Positions 834 through 6,757 of a DNA stretch of 6,757 nt are shown one piece after another. Under the pieces are notes generated by a model. The model ran no database searches. It saw nothing but the letters and a program-made list of their open reading frames with translations, and was not told where the DNA came from. The position numbers were made by a program, and so were the translations under genes. The DNA lies in IMG/VR virus record IMGVR_UViG_3300030111_000059. The stretch is one strand, 5' to 3'. How positions within the stretch are numbered: position 1 is the stretch's first letter; every line of letters begins with the position of its first letter. The DNA is from a virus.

Positions 834-863
834 ATTATAGTAACGTTACCGCAAATGTGATAA
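834..863 (-). promoter_or_regulatory. Candidate sigma70-type promoter for the 79-aa/123-aa operon
   Basis: Read on the minus strand: -35-like TTATCA (863..858), an 18-nt spacer, then a perfect -10 TATAAT (839..834). The predicted start is about 19 nt upstream of the ATG, so the leader contains the AAGGAG RBS. The palindrome GTAACGTTAC (840..849) directly abuts the -10. Confidence 0.5.
836..857. promoter_or_regulatory. 22-bp operator-like repeat, proximal copy (core palindrome GTAACGTTAC at 840..849)
   Basis: tatagtaacgttaccgcaaatg matches 899..920 (tatagtaacgttaccataaatg) at 20 of 22 positions. The core is a perfect 10-bp palindrome. Confidence 0.6.
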
Positions 864-898: not shown

Positions 899-920
899 TA
901 TAGTAACGTTACCATAAATG
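899..920. promoter_or_regulatory. 22-bp operator-like repeat, distal copy (core palindrome at 903..912), overlapping the zot stop codon
   Basis: Same repeat as 836..857. The core centres are 63 bp apart. The TAA inside GGTAACG (911..909 on the minus strand) is the zot stop codon. Confidence 0.6.
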
Positions 921-2186
921 GCCGGGCTTGCCTGATCCGACCACGACAATATCCGAAGTAGAGGAACCCTCGAACTGGGCACCTCTGCCCATGCGATCAG
1001 CTCCAAGGCTATCGACGGTGCGTCGATCGACACGGCCACGGATGTCGATAGGCCACGATCTGGCGACGTAGGCGACGGATTGTTTCTCAAGCAAGAGACC
1101 GTATCCGGTCCTGGTCACAGTCCAGCCCAGGGCCTGAATCTCACTCACGCGAAAGCGTTCCTTGATGTGATAGGACGAGTCGAGCAGTTCGATCTCGCCC
1201 ATCAGTTCGCGTCCAGGCTTGTCGCTGTCCATGATGGCGGTCGCCCTGATCTGATACTGCTGGGCCATCTTGTCCAGGTAGTCGATTGGCGGCGGCAGGG
1301 CTTCGGCAGTCTGATCGGCATGCTCAGGTTTGGCAGTGACCAGGGCAGATGCCTGCATGCTCGGTGGCTCTGGATTGGTGAGGCCGGCCGATGGCTGCGG
1401 CCGCTCGACGGTGACAGCTTGCGACGGCTGAGTCGAGGCAACCGCGCCACCCGTGCCGGTGAAAAATCCATACAGGTGATACACGGCATAGAAAGCGCCG
1501 ACGAAGACGAACGGCACGCCCAGCGAGAGCAGCTTGGAGTTCTTGAGCACGTTGGTGCGCTCGGTCTGGTAGACGCTACCCTTGACCGTTTCGCGTCGGT
1601 GACTGGAGTAGAGGCCAAAGTAGTTCGTTTCATAGGAACGCACGCCAGAGCCGATCTTGACAAACTTTCCCTTAGCCTGTTTCTGCCACTGCTCCCACTT
1701 GTACTGGTTGGGGCGTCCGATGGCCTGAAGCTTGAGGAAGTAGATGATGTCCTCGATCCGGCTGCGGATGATCTTGTGAACGTCATCGCGGTCCTGACCC
1801 ATGATGACGATTTCGAGCCCTCGGTGACGATGCTCGGTCCAGAACTTCTGCTGATTGAGCGGGAGCTTATAGTTCCCGCTGGGAAAGTAGTCCTGGATTT
1901 CATCCCAAACAATCATCGCGTTGTCAGGCGTCTTGTCGGCGAACTCGTTCTTAACGCGCTCAACGTCACCGGCTGCGCCATCCTGCTCGGCAGGCTCGAC
2001 GTAGATCAGCAGCATGCGGACGTATTCGACAGGCTCGTCCAGCAGCTCGGCGAACTTCTCCCAGTTGATGCCACGAATATTGGTAACAACCTGACGTCCA
2101 GCTTTCAGGGCGGGCAGGATGTGAAAGACGCACGCCTCGTAGCTTTTGCCAGCACCTGGAAGACCTTCATGAAAGTGAATGGCCAT
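909..2186 (-). CDS. Zot-like / pI-type inovirus assembly ATPase (425 aa)
   Basis: The N-terminus MAIHFHEGLPGAGKSYEA contains Walker A (GAGKS). MIVWDEIQ is a Walker B-like motif. There is one central TM segment, LLSLGVPFVFVGAFYAVYHLYGFF, then a P/A/Q-rich linker and a C-terminal domain of about 130 aa. ATG at 2186 is preceded by GGAGG in the end of the upstream gene. The position after the pIII- and pVI-like genes is canonical. Confidence 0.92.
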   Translation of the reverse strand: MAIHFHEGLPGAGKSYEACVFHILPALKAGRQVVTNIRGINWEKFAELLDEPVEYVRMLLIYVEPAEQDGAAGDVERVKNEFADKTPDNAMIVWDEIQDYFPSGNYKLPLNQQKFWTEHRHRGLEIVIMGQDRDDVHKIIRSRIEDIIYFLKLQAIGRPNQYKWEQWQKQAKGKFVKIGSGVRSYETNYFGLYSSHRRETVKGSVYQTERTNVLKNSKLLSLGVPFVFVGAFYAVYHLYGFFTGTGGAVASTQPSQAVTVERPQPSAGLTNPEPPSMQASALVTAKPEHADQTAEALPPPIDYLDKMAQQYQIRATAIMDSDKPGRELMGEIELLDSSYHIKERFRVSEIQALGWTVTRTGYGLLLEKQSVAYVARSWPIDIRGRVDRRTVDSLGADRMGRGAQFEGSSTSDIVVVGSGKPGHLW

Positions 2187-3919: not shown

Positions 3920-3949
3920 CGAAACAAATGAGGCCCCCGAAGGAGCCTC
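3920..3949 (-). terminator. Intrinsic terminator or attenuator downstream of the major coat gene
   Basis: The minus-strand RNA is GAGGCUCC-UUCG-GGGGCCUC (8-bp stem including one G-U, UUCG tetraloop), followed by AUUUGUUU. It starts 17 nt after the coat gene stop. Ff phages have a terminator after gene VIII. Confidence 0.6.
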
Positions 3950-3966: not shown

Positions 3967-4101
3967 TTAGCGGAACCAGCCGATAACCTTGTTAAAGCCC
4001 CACTTGGCAACGCCCGGCAGGACCTTGATTGCGGCAATCGCGGTGATGGCGGCGACGATGGTTTCAGCGGATACAGCAGCGGTGATGGCGGAAAAATCCA
4101 T
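3967..4101 (-). CDS. Major coat protein, 44 aa, no leader peptide (MDFSAITAAVSAETIVAAITAIAAIKVLPGVAKWGFNKVIGWFR)
   Basis: Translated by hand; not in the ORF track. ATG at 4101 is preceded by GAGGAG with a 9-nt spacer. The layout is an acidic N-terminus (D2, E13), a hydrophobic core, and a basic/aromatic C-terminus (K33, W34, K38, W42, R44). That is the classic inovirus coat design. It lies immediately upstream of the pIII-like gene. Confidence 0.8.
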   Translation of the reverse strand: MDFSAITAAVSAETIVAAITAIAAIKVLPGVAKWGFNKVIGWFR

Positions 4102-4107
4102 GCGGTG

Positions 4108-4380
4108 TTACTCCTCGACGGTTAATGGTTCGGCGCGTGAGTTGATGTAACTCACAACAACGCCGAATCCCCAGGCGGTCAGCCAGAGGATCAGGGGCAG
4201 AGAAAACCCAGCCATGAAAGCTGACTGGATCGTCTCGGGATCGGGCATTGCAAAAAGAGCCGCCAGCGTCGGCGTTGCGGCGTATTCCTCAGCAGTCATG
4301 AGCGCGTAACCGGCGCAGGCAGGCGAGTACTCGCCAACCACACGGATCGAATCGGCTACGACCTCAACACAGAGACTCAT
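4108..4380 (-). CDS. 90-aa hypothetical membrane protein (C-terminal TM segment)
   Basis: ATG at 4380 overlaps the stop of the 32-aa ORF as ATGA. The TM-like segment is AGFSLPLILWLTAWGFGVVVSYI. Its last codons (GAG GAG TAA) provide the RBS for the coat gene. I recognise no functional motif. Confidence 0.6.
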   Translation of the reverse strand: MSLCVEVVADSIRVVGEYSPACAGYALMTAEEYAATPTLAALFAMPDPETIQSAFMAGFSLPLILWLTAWGFGVVVSYINSRAEPLTVEE

Positions 4381-4475
4381 GGCCGCAGCTCACGACGAAC
4401 GAAGGACAAAGCAACGACACCACCAGCAAGGGTGGCGAATAGCCAGAACGTGGCCGAGAGGCTGGCGGCAAACAT
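4377..4475 (-). CDS. 32-aa hydrophobic micro-ORF (MFAASLSATFWLFATLAGGVVALSFVRRELRP), pVII/pIX-like by size and position
   Basis: Translated by hand; not in the ORF track. The start overlaps the upstream stop as TGATG (4477..4473) and the stop overlaps the downstream start as ATGA (4380..4377). It has a single TM-like helix with a basic end. Ff pVII and pIX are 33 and 32 aa and sit between gene V and gene VIII. Confidence 0.55.
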   Translation of the reverse strand: MFAASLSATFWLFATLAGGVVALSFVRRELRP

Positions 4476-4807
4476 CAGGCGGTAGCCGGCTGCTGTTGAC
4501 GGGATACGGCGAACAGGTTCACGTTTTGAACCTTGGTCAAGCCGGTAAGCGTCAGGGTCGCTTTACCCTGCGCACCAGGACGGCTTCCAAAGTCCAAATC
4601 GAAGAGCGCGGGCAACTTGGCGTCGCGCAAGCGGTCAATCAGCGCACAATCGGCGCTAACCTTGGTGGGTTTGAATCCGAAACTACCGGCGGTATCTTCG
4701 CGGTAGTCGTTGACGTACCAGACGGAAAGACCCTTGCGAATTTCGCCGGTTTTTTCGTCGGGCATTTCCCAGCTATCACACGAAAGGATAAGGGCGCGCT
4801 CTGCCAT
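4475..4807 (-). CDS. 110-aa putative ssDNA-binding protein (gene V analogue; call is mainly positional)
   Basis: I prefer the ATG at 4807, preceded by GAGG with a 9-nt spacer, over the TTG at 4822 used in the ORF track. It is the first gene of the structural block after rep. The size and soluble, strand-rich-looking sequence are consistent with this call. I saw no diagnostic motif by eye. Confidence 0.55.
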   Translation of the reverse strand: MAERALILSCDSWEMPDEKTGEIRKGLSVWYVNDYREDTAGSFGFKPTKVSADCALIDRLRDAKLPALFDLDFGSRPGAQGKATLTLTGLTKVQNVNLFAVSRQQQPATA

Positions 4808-4842
4808 GACAAGAAACCTCAATTAATGGTCGGGGCACCTGA

Positions 4843-4862
4843 ACGTCAAGTGCACTTGACGT
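4843..4862. promoter_or_regulatory. Perfect 20-bp palindrome ACGTCAAGTGCACTTGACGT, candidate operator in the divergent gap between the HTH gene and the structural operon
   Basis: I checked the reverse complement by hand and it is identical. Each half carries a TTGACG (-35-like) hexamer facing outward. It lies in the 85-bp gap between the minus-strand ATG (4807) and the plus-strand ATG (4893). Confidence 0.6.
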
Positions 4863-4892
4863 AAAGTAGCCTTAACTATTGCGGGAGTCAAC

Positions 4893-5270
4893 ATGCACGA
4901 AAAGAGCCCACCAACCACCGTCGAGTGGTTGGATTTGGTGAAGGAGCGTTGCGGGGTCCGGAGTGACTACAAACTGGCCGAGCTACTGGGCGTCACACGC
5001 CAAGCAATCAGCCAGCAGAGAGCGGGAAAGCAGTGCATGTCGATCATCTCAGCAGTGCGAGTTGCAGAGGCGCTGAGGCTGCCTTCGCAGGCCGTGATTG
5101 CTGGCGTGATGTACTACGGAGACCGGGAGACGAATCGCGGATTTTGGGCGGATCGATGGGCCCGTGCATGGCCAGCAGTTCAAAGACGAATCGGGCAACC
5201 GCCTCATGGCCACCAGTCTCAGCCAATCGGAGCAGAACAGCGCGCGCCTGATATGGCTGGCGAAGGATGA
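4893..5270 (+). CDS. XRE/Cro-CI-type helix-turn-helix transcriptional regulator (125 aa), candidate phage repressor
   Basis: ATG at 4893 is preceded by GGGAG with a 5-nt spacer. SDYKLAELLGVTRQAISQQRAGK is a classic HTH (helix, G-V-T turn, recognition helix QAISQ). It is the only plus-strand gene. Its 3' 227 nt overlap the 3' end of rep. Confidence 0.72.
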   Translation: MHEKSPPTTVEWLDLVKERCGVRSDYKLAELLGVTRQAISQQRAGKQCMSIISAVRVAEALRLPSQAVIAGVMYYGDRETNRGFWADRWARAWPAVQRRIGQPPHGHQSQPIGAEQRAPDMAGEG

Positions 5271-6414
5271 TCCGCCACTGATCGCGAGTGACCTGCGAGA
5301 CGCGCAGAGCGGTGGCAATCTCCTCCTGGTTGATTTCCTCATCGGTCTGGTCCGCGATCTGGAAAAGCGCCTTAAGGCCGGGCGTCCACCGAAGCTGGTT
5401 ATAGCCCTTGAATGCCGCCGAGAACTCGGCAAACAGAGCGCCGGAACGGGCATCGCCTTCGGCGTAAGAGCGCAGCAAATCGAACGGCGTGCGACCCTTG
5501 CCAGTCCCGCGCTTGGAGTTCGCCTTCGTTACTTCGCTGGCCGCTTCCCATCGGGGTTCGGTGCCCCACTTGGCGACATACTCCGCAGCCGACTCGGCCT
5601 GCTGAATGTGCACGCCACGCTCCCTGGACGGAGCCGGAAGACCAGCAGCAACCGACGAGGTTTTCCAGACGGCAAACAGCAGGCGATGAAGCATGGCGCG
5701 CTGGCGAACCGTCAGCGGCTCGGGGAAAAGCCAGAGTTCGTGGAAGTGTGGGTGCCAGCCATTGGCGTTACCGTGCGTTACCTCTAAGGCCCGGATCGAA
5801 CCCACCACGTCGAACAACTCGCGAAGGTGCTTGTAGTCGCGATGCTCGCGCATTTTCTTGGTCGCTACACGGAGCTTGCCCATAAGCTCGGAAAGCACAT
5901 CCATGCGCGCATGGCGCACAGTGAGCGTGACCATTTCGACCCCGCCACCGGCTGAAATGTGCGTGTCGATTGCCTGACGCACTTCCAGTTTGCGACGTTC
6001 CGAGATTTTGGCGGAGCAGATCGGGCAGGACCAGACAGAGGAGCAGGTCTGGAGCCCCGAGTAGTGAGCCTTGCCGGTGGCGGAGTCCTTCAGGATGCCG
6101 ACATAGCCGTCCTTGTTCGTGAGCGTCCGAATGCAGTGCCTGACGCGATGATCTGGCAGGAGCCGCCGAGCGGCGTCCTGGAGCGAAAAACGCGCTTCGC
6201 GGGCCTGTTCTGGCGTGAACTCGGGTACAAACTCACGACGCTTGTTGTCGAACGTAAACCGTTGAATTTCCCCGGTTTTCTGGTCGACAACCTCCTTAAT
6301 TCTGGCCGCGAATTTCGCAGTAGTAACAAGGGCGCCTCCGGCGGCCCGCGCTTCGCTTGCGGGCCCGCCCGGATGCGCCTTTCGCGCCTGGGCGCTTTCT
6401 GTTATAGAATCCAC
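5044..6414 (-). CDS. Rolling-circle replication initiator, HUH endonuclease superfamily (456 aa)
   Basis: HUH motif HPHFHELW (5731..5754). Candidate catalytic Tyr motif AAEYVAKW (Y279 at 5578..5580). Cys cluster CSSVWSCPICSAK (C124-C133 at 6016..6045). The motif order resembles pC194/pUB110/pIJ101-type Rep proteins. GTG start at 6414 is preceded by GAGG with a 7-nt spacer. It is the first gene after the intergenic region, as in Ff gene II. Confidence 0.85.
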   Translation of the reverse strand: MDSITESAQARKAHPGGPASEARAAGGALVTTAKFAARIKEVVDQKTGEIQRFTFDNKRREFVPEFTPEQAREARFSLQDAARRLLPDHRVRHCIRTLTNKDGYVGILKDSATGKAHYSGLQTCSSVWSCPICSAKISERRKLEVRQAIDTHISAGGGVEMVTLTVRHARMDVLSELMGKLRVATKKMREHRDYKHLRELFDVVGSIRALEVTHGNANGWHPHFHELWLFPEPLTVRQRAMLHRLLFAVWKTSSVAAGLPAPSRERGVHIQQAESAAEYVAKWGTEPRWEAASEVTKANSKRGTGKGRTPFDLLRSYAEGDARSGALFAEFSAAFKGYNQLRWTPGLKALFQIADQTDEEINQEEIATALRVSQVTRDQWRIILRQPYQARAVLLRLAETGGHEAVARFVFELLAMHGPIDPPKIRDSSPGLRSTSRQQSRPAKAASAPLQLALLR

Positions 6415-6436
6415 TTCAGGACCTCGACCGTCCGAG

Positions 6437-6487
6437 CCCCGCGAATCGTTTAGCCGGCAAGCAAACGAGCAATTCGCGGGGTTTTTT
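6437..6487 (+). terminator. Plus-strand intrinsic-terminator-like hairpin plus T6 tract, 23 nt beyond the rep start codon
   Basis: CCCCGCGAAT (6437..6446) pairs with ATTCGCGGGG (6472..6481). An inner CGTTT/AAACG helix follows, then TTTTTT at 6482..6487. On the minus strand the same hairpin would sit in the rep leader, preceded by an A-run. Confidence 0.55.
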
Positions 6488-6506
6488 ATTGCCTTGCCGT
6501 CAAGCG

Positions 6507-6535
6507 ATCTTAACGGCTCCGTGTCGCCTATCCAA
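6507..6535 (-). promoter_or_regulatory. Weak candidate rep promoter
   Basis: Minus-strand reading: TTGGAT (6535..6530), a 17-nt spacer, then TAAGAT (6512..6507). The match to consensus is only moderate, at 3/6 and 4/6. Confidence 0.25.
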
Positions 6536-6538
6536 CAC

Positions 6539-6555
6539 CAAGGGCTTTGCCCTTG
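6539..6555. other. Small hairpin CAAGGGC-ttt-GCCCTTG
   Basis: 7-bp perfect stem with a 3-nt loop, read directly; intergenic. Confidence 0.4.
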
Positions 6556-6576
6556 TCATCCCACTCTTCGCCAGAG

Positions 6577-6619
6577 GGTCAGAGGGCAGGGGAGAAAAGC
6601 TTTCCCCTGCCCTATGACC
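6577..6619. other. Strongest hairpin of the intergenic region (about 18 bp); candidate packaging signal or origin stem-loop
   Basis: AGGGCAGGGGAGA (6583..6595) pairs with TTTCCCCTGCCCT (6601..6613), giving 13 bp with one G-T and loop aaagc. After one mismatch it is extended by GGTCA (6577..6581) pairing with TGACC (6615..6619). Confidence 0.5.
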
Positions 6620-6667
6620 TAAGCTTGATCTGGTCGGAGGAGGGTCAAGGGTCGGCGCAAGCGCCTC

Positions 6668-6757
6668 AAATCCTCACCCGTTCGTTTTTTTCGCGATGAA
6701 GCGAGCGAAAAAAGCCGCTGCGGCTTGCGGTTTGCCCCCTGACCAAGGGAGAAATCA
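6668..6757. repeat. Direct terminal repeat, copy 2 (identical to 1..90)
   Basis: See copy 1; exact 90/90 identity. Confidence 0.95.

Follow-up and report, generated by a model that had tools for sequence, protein, structure and literature searches.

Three conserved palindromic sites and a small helix-turn-helix protein: a probable repressor–operator module in an inovirus

What is the function of a perfect palindrome that separates a small helix-turn-helix (HTH) gene from the divergently oriented structural operon of a filamentous phage? The window, that is, the whole stretch of 6,757 nucleotides analyzed here, repeats its first 90 bases at its end and therefore represents a circle of 6667 nt. 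The genome is that of an inovirus and carries the following genes.

4893..5270, + strand: HTH gene, 125 aa, modeled as Xre/Cro-type, the proposed binder of the sites described below
5044..6414, - strand: rep, GTG start, a rolling-circle initiator by its family match to Pfam Rep_1
4475..4807, - strand: 110-aa ssb-like gene, the first of the leftward operon, with the Shine-Dalgarno sequence GAGG at 4820..4817
4101..3967, - strand: major coat protein (Inovirus_capsid)
(-) strand: pIII-like protein
(-) strand: pVI-like protein
2186..909, - strand: Zot/pI
569-808, - strand: ORF79
201-572, - strand: ORF123

The HTH gene is the sole gene on the + strand; at its 3' end, it shares 227 nt (5044-5270) with the 3' end of rep, which is read from the other strand. 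The 110-aa protein has no match in Pfam, PHROG or NCBIfam, and its ssDNA-binding label is taken solely from its position after rep.

The original prediction placed a perfect 20-bp palindrome with outward-facing TTGACG hexamers in the middle of the gap between the HTH and ssb-like genes, and the window bears out each of these points. The palindrome, O1 (ACGTCAAGTGCACTTGACGT), is identical to its own reverse complement, and the adjoining A4842 and A4863 add no further symmetry. TTGACG reads outward on both strands, at 4856-4861 (+) and 4849..4844 (-). The gap extends over 85 bp (4808-4892) from the ATG of the ssb-like gene at 4807 (-) to that of the HTH gene at 4893 (+); the center of O1 (4852/4853) is displaced from the center of the gap by about 2 bp, and O1 is separated from the HTH gene by 31 bp. 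No other palindrome in the window has arms of 8 nt or more; the runners-up reach 7 nt. Given the base composition, 6757 nt should contain 0.0077 palindromes with 10-nt arms, close to the value of about 0.006 given earlier. Under a first-order Markov model of the window, a palindrome with arms of at least 10 nt was present somewhere in 38 of 3000 simulations (1.3%), a frequency at which O1 might still be a chance feature. Rfam at a permissive threshold returned no match at O1 and one meaningless miRNA match at 6575-6621.

O1 does not stand alone. The recurrence of its half-site CGTCAAG at 6498-6504 had already been noticed; the half-site is indeed there, but it is the left half only of a complete second site, O2. 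A search for CGTYAAG-N4-CTTRACG with up to two mismatches found 3 matches in the window against 0.04 expected, and none of 200 shuffles reached 3. O1 and O2 match without a mismatch and the third site, O1', with 2. The three sites are as follows.

4843..4862, both strands: O1, ACGTCAAGTGCACTTGACGT, perfect 20-bp palindrome with the core CGTCAAG-TGCA-CTTGACG at 4844-4861
4859..4878, both strands: O1', imperfect, with the core CGTAAAGTAGCCTTAACT (CGTAAAG-TAGC-CTTAACT) at 4860-4877
6497..6516, both strands: O2, CCGTCAAG-CGAT-CTTAACGG, with the core CGTCAAGCGATCTTAACG at 6498-6515

Within each site, the half-sites are arranged in a 7-N4-7 layout with their centers 11 bp apart. O1' abuts O1 such that its first CG is the end of O1, and the two sites are 16 bp apart from center to center. 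O2 is located 83 bp upstream of the rep GTG.

The three sites are found at the same places in every relative that covers them. Their half-sites are conserved, and the 4 bp in between are free to vary (TGCA, TGCG, CGCG, CGAT and TAGC; the variants TGCG and CGCG occur at the center of O1 among relatives). Position 4 of the half-site varies between C and T only, with G/A on the opposite arm. In L009, both arms of O1 have changed in a compensatory manner to form another perfect palindrome, CGTTAAGCGCGCTTAACG, and O1' has a single mismatch. The O1' core is invariant in all 11 related sequences. None of the sequences shows a change in ACGTAAAGTAGCCTTAAC, which joins the outer bases of the O1 right arm to the O1' core. 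Because the whole 85-bp gap (mean column identity of 89%) and the rep upstream region (94%) are well conserved, conservation singles out the sites unsharply. Nevertheless, the invariance of this non-coding block next to an HTH gene whose synonymous sites are saturated indicates that it is under strong constraint. A chance origin of the palindrome, or its use by a host factor, is contradicted by the three copies, the conserved layout and the compensatory change. For host factors in particular, the gap contains no LexA box of the gamma-proteobacterial type, and the orientation of the half-sites, as read from the sequence, is opposite to that of the FNR box. Therefore, we regard both of these explanations as very improbable.

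The sites travel with a defined set of genes. The module of rep, the HTH gene and the ssb-like gene (rep-HTH-ssb) recurs in five IMG/VR contigs, four short assembly contigs and a few JGI contigs. The nearest deposited phage, blackswan219-6, is 80% identical at the DNA level over rep-HTH-ssb only. A search of 185,579 species-representative genomes by protein and with the invariant 21-mer found no copy, and the viral collection yielded no contigs beyond these five. All three sites accompany this module and not the RepB-like ORF123. ORF123, which over its N-terminal 62 residues shares 52% identity with the protein annotated 'replication regulatory protein RepB' in Pseudomonas phage 42-1 and which has no Pfam match, was rejected as the binder of the sites because it is absent from blackswan219-6, which keeps rep-HTH-ssb together with O1, O1' and O2. 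At up to three mismatches, the motif is absent from PMBT54, phiE12-2 and Pseudomonas phage 42-1, and RSS-TH1 contains a single match with three mismatches at position 4322, which we take as chance. In three contigs (L004, L016 and L017), the proteins of rep-HTH-ssb are 90-99% identical to those of the window, and the structural proteins are far more distant (25% for Zot, 28% for pIII, 32% for pVI and 43% for the coat protein), which points to mosaicism, with the genes for replication and regulation swapped as one cassette.

The HTH gene within this module is a real gene under purifying selection, given its low dN/dS (0.05-0.2) at saturated synonymous sites; in comparisons with blackswan219-6, L007 and L009, dS is 1.6-2.0 and dN/dS is 0.07-0.11. 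Both frames of the overlap between the HTH gene and rep are open in all relatives. Conservation of rep is poor in the tail past HGPIDPP, where an indel is also present, and HTH codons 51-77 show a dN/dS of 0.11-0.19. The Pfam sequence model alone does not place the encoded protein because its match to HTH_3 (residues 27-64, E 0.0016) scores 18.8 bits, below the gathering cut-off of 23. Other comparisons point to a DNA-binding protein. The protein matches PHROG 4441 'HTH DNA binding protein' (2.1e-17) and PHROG 638 'transcriptional regulator' (3.6e-13). Over residues 5-70, it shares 47% identity with gp24 of Burkholderia phage phiE12-2, an 'HTH DNA binding protein', and over residues 11-85 it is 32% identical (E 2e-4) to ORF13 of RSS0-type Ralstonia inoviruses. 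An AF2 model was built from an alignment of four sequences, as the protein database holds just three homologue clusters; its pLDDT is 80.7 overall and above 87 for residues 10-100. The model contains six helices (residues 9-20, 25-32, 36-43, 51-61 and 65-76, and an extra helix at 82-100) and displays the five-helix HTH fold with its helix 2-turn-helix 3 element. The best PDB matches by Foldseek are C.BclI, P22 c2, C.AhdI, CylR2, HigA and 434 Cro, all of which are Xre-type proteins that act as dimers on symmetric operators, with a probability of 0.9-1.0 and a TM score on the target of 0.54-0.63, but with E values of only 0.04-0.5. A sequence search of the PDB gave weak matches only, the best being C.BclI at E 0.16. 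Thus, the 125-aa protein models as an Xre/Cro-type HTH protein, and the close relatives with the motif all have the same recognition helix, GVTRQAISQQR.

Which protein, then, recognizes the sites? Rep is always present with the sites, and the co-occurrence of genes and sites thus does not discriminate between Rep and the HTH protein as candidate binders. The sites could accordingly be imagined as recognition and nick sites of Rep_1, that is, a double-strand origin, or as single-stranded hairpins of the viral strand that serve priming or packaging. O1 and O2 of the window do fold as ssDNA hairpins of -7 to -8 kcal/mol, and CTTGAC resembles CTTGATA, the nick core of pC194-type replicons in the pC194/pUB110-type origins of Rep_1 initiators. 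However, the O1 hairpin is lost in L006 (-1.6 kcal/mol) and blackswan219-6 (-1.3 kcal/mol), where it is no better than shuffles, the O2 hairpin is lost in blackswan219-6, and O1' is not hairpin-like; the half-site motif persists in all of these sequences. The nick core is not found where an origin would place it: in L006, O1 and O2 lack CTTGA on the viral (-) strand, and in the window CTTGAT occurs on the + strand only and never on the - strand. Moreover, two or three origins flanking rep would yield deletion circles. The distant homologues of the HTH protein also argue against Rep. They reside in unrelated contexts, including contigs of 130-720 kb, without Rep_1 neighbors, and they still carry upstream palindromes: a perfect 8+8 inverted repeat occurs within 150 nt upstream in 10 of 43 (23%), compared with 39 of 846 control windows (4.6%; p = 5e-5). 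One of them, L048, has gaaCGTCAAC-AATC-GTTGACGgtc upstream, which has the 7-N4-7 layout and nearly the O1 half-site. Since symmetric CGT-N12-ACG sites precede the distant homologues in two lineages only (L043/L044 and L048), we consider these sites supportive but anecdotal. An origin or hairpin role thus appears improbable, and we infer that the HTH protein is the probable binder of O1, O1' and O2.

If the sites are operators, promoters are expected beneath them. In a scan of all positions on both strands with spacers of 15-19 bp (67,260 combinations), which used an approximate E. coli sigma-70 matrix that may not suit the host, the candidates ranked 2, 8 and 16 fall exactly under the three sites in the orientations that the genes need.

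4863..4891, - strand: predicted P_L for the ssb-like gene and structural operon, rank 2 of 67,260; -35 TTGACT (4891..4886), 17-bp spacer, -10 TACTTT (4868..4863), predicted start ~4856
4839..4867, + strand: predicted P_R for the HTH gene, rank 16 of 67,260; weak -35 CTGAAC (4839-4844), 17-bp spacer, -10 TAAAGT (4862-4867), predicted start ~4874
6507..6535, - strand: predicted P_rep, rank 8 of 67,260; -35 TTGGAT (6535..6530), 17-bp spacer, -10 TAAGAT (6512..6507, within O2), predicted start ~6500

Both hexamers of predicted P_L are invariant among relatives, as is the -10 of predicted P_R, the -35 of which is CTAACC in diverged relatives. Predicted P_rep is conserved, with TAACAT as its -10 in blackswan219-6. 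The predicted starts are all upstream of the respective Shine-Dalgarno sequences (GAGG at 4820..4817, GAGG at 6425..6422 and GGGAG at 4883-4887, the last of which is retained in the predicted P_R transcript). The -10 hexamers of P_L and P_R overlap in an invariant heptamer, TAAAGTA (4862-4868). Several coding-region sites also rank high with the same matrix (ranks 3-7), and a simple consensus scan missed P_L, P_R and P_rep altogether. The rank-3 candidate, TTGAAT-16-TATCTT on the + strand inside the ssb-like gene (4671-4698), was rejected as a promoter of the HTH gene, as its -10 is TGTCTT or TGTCGG in relatives. Relative to the predicted starts, the sites are positioned as follows.

O1: -6 to +14 of P_L; -31 to -12 of P_R
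O1': -22 to -3 of P_L; -15 to +5 of P_R, covering both -10s
O2: -16 to +4 of P_rep

These candidates differ from the promoters proposed originally, in which the two TTGACG hexamers of O1 serve as the -35 elements of outward back-to-back promoters, both of them blocked by a single dimer bound to the palindrome. The hexamers each match TTGACA at 5 of 6 positions, and the leftward pair TTGACG-17-TTAATT ranks 13th in the scan. The remaining features of this arrangement do not fit sigma-70 promoters. The rightward hexamer has no -10 at 15-19 bp (its best pairing ranks 122, and the hexamer 17 bp downstream is TTGCGG, ATGAGG or AAAGGG depending on the relative). The -10 of the leftward hexamer is not conserved (CTAATT, CTTATA) and would place the start at ~4814, which is already downstream of the ssb-like gene's Shine-Dalgarno sequence. 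In addition, the left hexamer itself reads TTAACG in five diverged relatives. We therefore find it improbable that the TTGACG hexamers act as -35 elements; predicted P_L and P_R are likely the better promoter candidates.

Based on these observations, we propose that three conserved operators lie over predicted promoters and are bound by the phage's own HTH regulator, forming a repressor–operator module, a reading to which we assign a probability of roughly 0.65. A dimer of the HTH protein would bind O1, O1' and O2 on the double-stranded replicative-form DNA. Occupancy of O2 would occlude the -10 and the start of predicted P_rep, and since O2 lies over this predicted promoter, the best one upstream of rep, replication is probably controlled as well. 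Occupancy of O1 and O1' would block predicted P_L, and with it the ssb-like, coat and assembly genes, and would also block predicted P_R, resulting in negative autoregulation. Replication and virion output would thus be kept low together, as expected for an immunity repressor or for a repressor of a carrier state with low production, and the regulator probably confers immunity to related phages. An opposite-strand regulator beside the replication gene, the arrangement of inovirus immunity modules, is present here and in the same layout in all relatives. The earlier proposal that one dimer at the palindrome switches both directions is retained in that O1 resembles a dimer operator, lies beside the HTH gene and is placed to affect both directions. 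As a minimal one-dimer switch, it is too simple, given that the gap holds two abutting sites and a third covers the predicted rep promoter. With O1 in the spacer of predicted P_R, our model contains no positive feedback to stabilize a switch.

Positive feedback is the central element of a different regulatory scheme in which the sites are still operators. C.BclI and C.AhdI, the controllers of restriction-modification systems, are small Xre-type dimers that act on two adjacent palindromic boxes upstream of their own genes. By analogy, the HTH protein could activate its own gene at a low dose and repress it at a high dose via the adjacent site. The best PDB sequence and fold matches are these two proteins, although the similarity is weak (PDB 2b5a and 1y7y, E 0.04-0.2); two abutting palindromic sites of unequal quality are found upstream of the regulator gene; and the weak -35 of predicted P_R could need help. 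However, O1 is centered at about -21.5 of predicted P_R, which is a repressing and not an activating position, and the 16-bp center spacing puts two dimers on opposite faces of the DNA. The site spacing and sequence differ from those of the restriction-modification controllers, and no restriction or methylase gene is found among the ORFs of the 6667-nt genome, every one of which has been accounted for. Hence, the likeness to C proteins is limited to the fold and the site layout, and we consider self-activation unlikely in comparison with plain repression by the HTH protein.

A more elaborate form of the repressor–operator module can also be drawn, although we regard it as doubtful. Here, the regulator and virion promoters would share the 7-bp -10 core TAAAGTA, making their occupancy by RNA polymerase mutually exclusive, and the abutting operators on opposite faces would set the balance between them. 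The HTH transcript, unterminated after its gene, would cross all of rep in the antisense direction and stop short of O2 at a terminator-like element that lies between O2 and the rep start.

6434..6487, + strand: strong hairpin followed by T6, -27.4 kcal/mol, z -4.2, terminator-like in the rightward direction only

In L006 and blackswan219-6, single-base deletions come in pairs that preserve the stem of this hairpin. If this scheme is true, one unit would repress replication twice, by the protein at O2 and by convergent transcription or a 1.2-kb antisense RNA.

Other elements of the genome were noted alongside the three sites. A second palindrome family, GTAACGTTAC, has three perfect copies (415-424, 840-849 and 903-912). 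Two of them, as extended repeats of the form ATAGTAACGTTACC at 836-849 and 900-913, lie on either side of the promoter that ranks first in the window (TTATCA-18-TATAAT, 863..834, - strand), which is located upstream of ORF79; the remaining copy lies inside ORF123. A second regulator, either ORF79 or ORF123, probably uses this family as its operators. Apart from a very weak resemblance to RelB antitoxins, no family match was obtained for ORF79. Neither ORF79 nor its promoter and repeats (809-908) have a counterpart in any related contig, and ORF123 follows Zot by just 77 bp in L002; the ORF79 region looks like an insertion specific to this genome. An 86-nt non-coding element at 6534-6619 is 94% identical to a non-coding segment of the otherwise unrelated P. 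aeruginosa inoviruses 42-1 and 62-2 and holds a hairpin with a 17-bp stem (6577-6593 / 6603-6619). The element may serve as a packaging signal or complementary-strand origin, and its identity hints at a Pseudomonas-like host. Terminator-like hairpins on the - strand are located at 3930-3949, just after the major coat gene, and at 45-59 / 6712-6726, after ORF123; they fit a long, attenuated leftward operon that ends before the rep promoter.

Why does such a module matter? The regulation of an inovirus decides whether a cell sheds phage quietly, overproduces it or resists superinfection, and to our knowledge it has been worked out for a few phages only, such as CTXphi, Pf4 and SW1. The present locus offers a testable case from an uncultivated lineage, with a 125-aa regulator, three sites of 18-20 bp and a specified coverage of predicted promoters. 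Because rep-HTH-ssb and its sites are common to phages with differing structural genes, they look like a cassette for replication and immunity that phages can exchange, and such a cassette would set the immunity groups within this set of phages. What is generally understood about phage repressors does not change: this would be an ordinary type of phage switch in a new phage.

How does this module compare with the known inovirus repressors? In the summary of Kimsey & Waldor 2004 given in PMC8402870, RstR of CTXphi acts at several operators at the rstA promoter, represses the promoter of the replication genes and sets immunity. As far as that summary goes, in both systems a filamentous phage carries several operator copies and encodes a small repressor opposite to its replication gene. 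They differ in that rstR is upstream of and divergent from rstA, whereas the regulator gene here is downstream of rep, antisense to it and overlapping its 3' end. Unlike in CTXphi as summarized there, the regulator faces the ssb-like gene and the structural operon, with an operator pair in that gap and a separate copy for rep. In the Ralstonia phages, RSS0 ORF13 and RSM3 ORF15 have been discussed as immunity or repressor factors, and the reverse-oriented repressor of the RSM phages is located between pII (rep) and pV (ssb), which is the position of the HTH gene here (PMC3816273). No operator is described for RSS0 ORF13 or RSM3 ORF15 in that paper, and we found no inverted repeat upstream of ORF13 in RSS-TH1. 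Unlike the HTH gene, RSS0 ORF13 carries a dif-like attP and lies in a large intergenic region (PMC3816273); a search for an integration function in the present phage found none. Upstream of phiE12-2 gp24, we found just a weak 17-nt inverted repeat.

The Pf4 switch uses divergent overlapping promoter regions that are bound by a phage repressor, and Pf4r confers immunity and controls replication indirectly (PMC7379572, PMC8402870). The present phage resembles Pf4 as an inovirus with divergent overlapping promoter regions, which are predicted here. However, Pf4r is P2 C-like, binds to non-palindromic repeats (PMC8402870) and needs a second regulator, XisF4, in contrast to the palindromic sites found here. 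The repressor of the Pseudomonas inovirus 42-1 showed no similarity to the HTH protein. PMBT54 (L011), the Rep of which is 32% identical to that of the present phage, also has a small antisense gene for a DNA-binding protein, ORF2, between rep and ssb that overlaps the rep 3' end (PMC10534721), but ORF2 is annotated as a MatP_C domain-containing protein and not as an HTH protein. The repeats upstream of its ssb, beside the antisense ORF2 (1760-1800), are direct and not palindromic, consisting of tandem TCGTGTT(T/A) units (TCGTGTTTTCGTGTTATCGTGTTTTCGTGTTGACG), and are a possible analogue of the operator described here. The region upstream of PMBT54 rep shares no motif of at least 9 bases with its counterpart here. 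Thus, repressors encoded opposite to the replication gene are already known from CTXphi (RstR), RSM (ORF15), RSS0 (ORF13) and Pf4 (Pf4r with XisF4), and what is specific to the present phage is the three-site layout, a -10 core predicted to serve both divergent promoters, and a regulator gene that overlaps rep in antisense.
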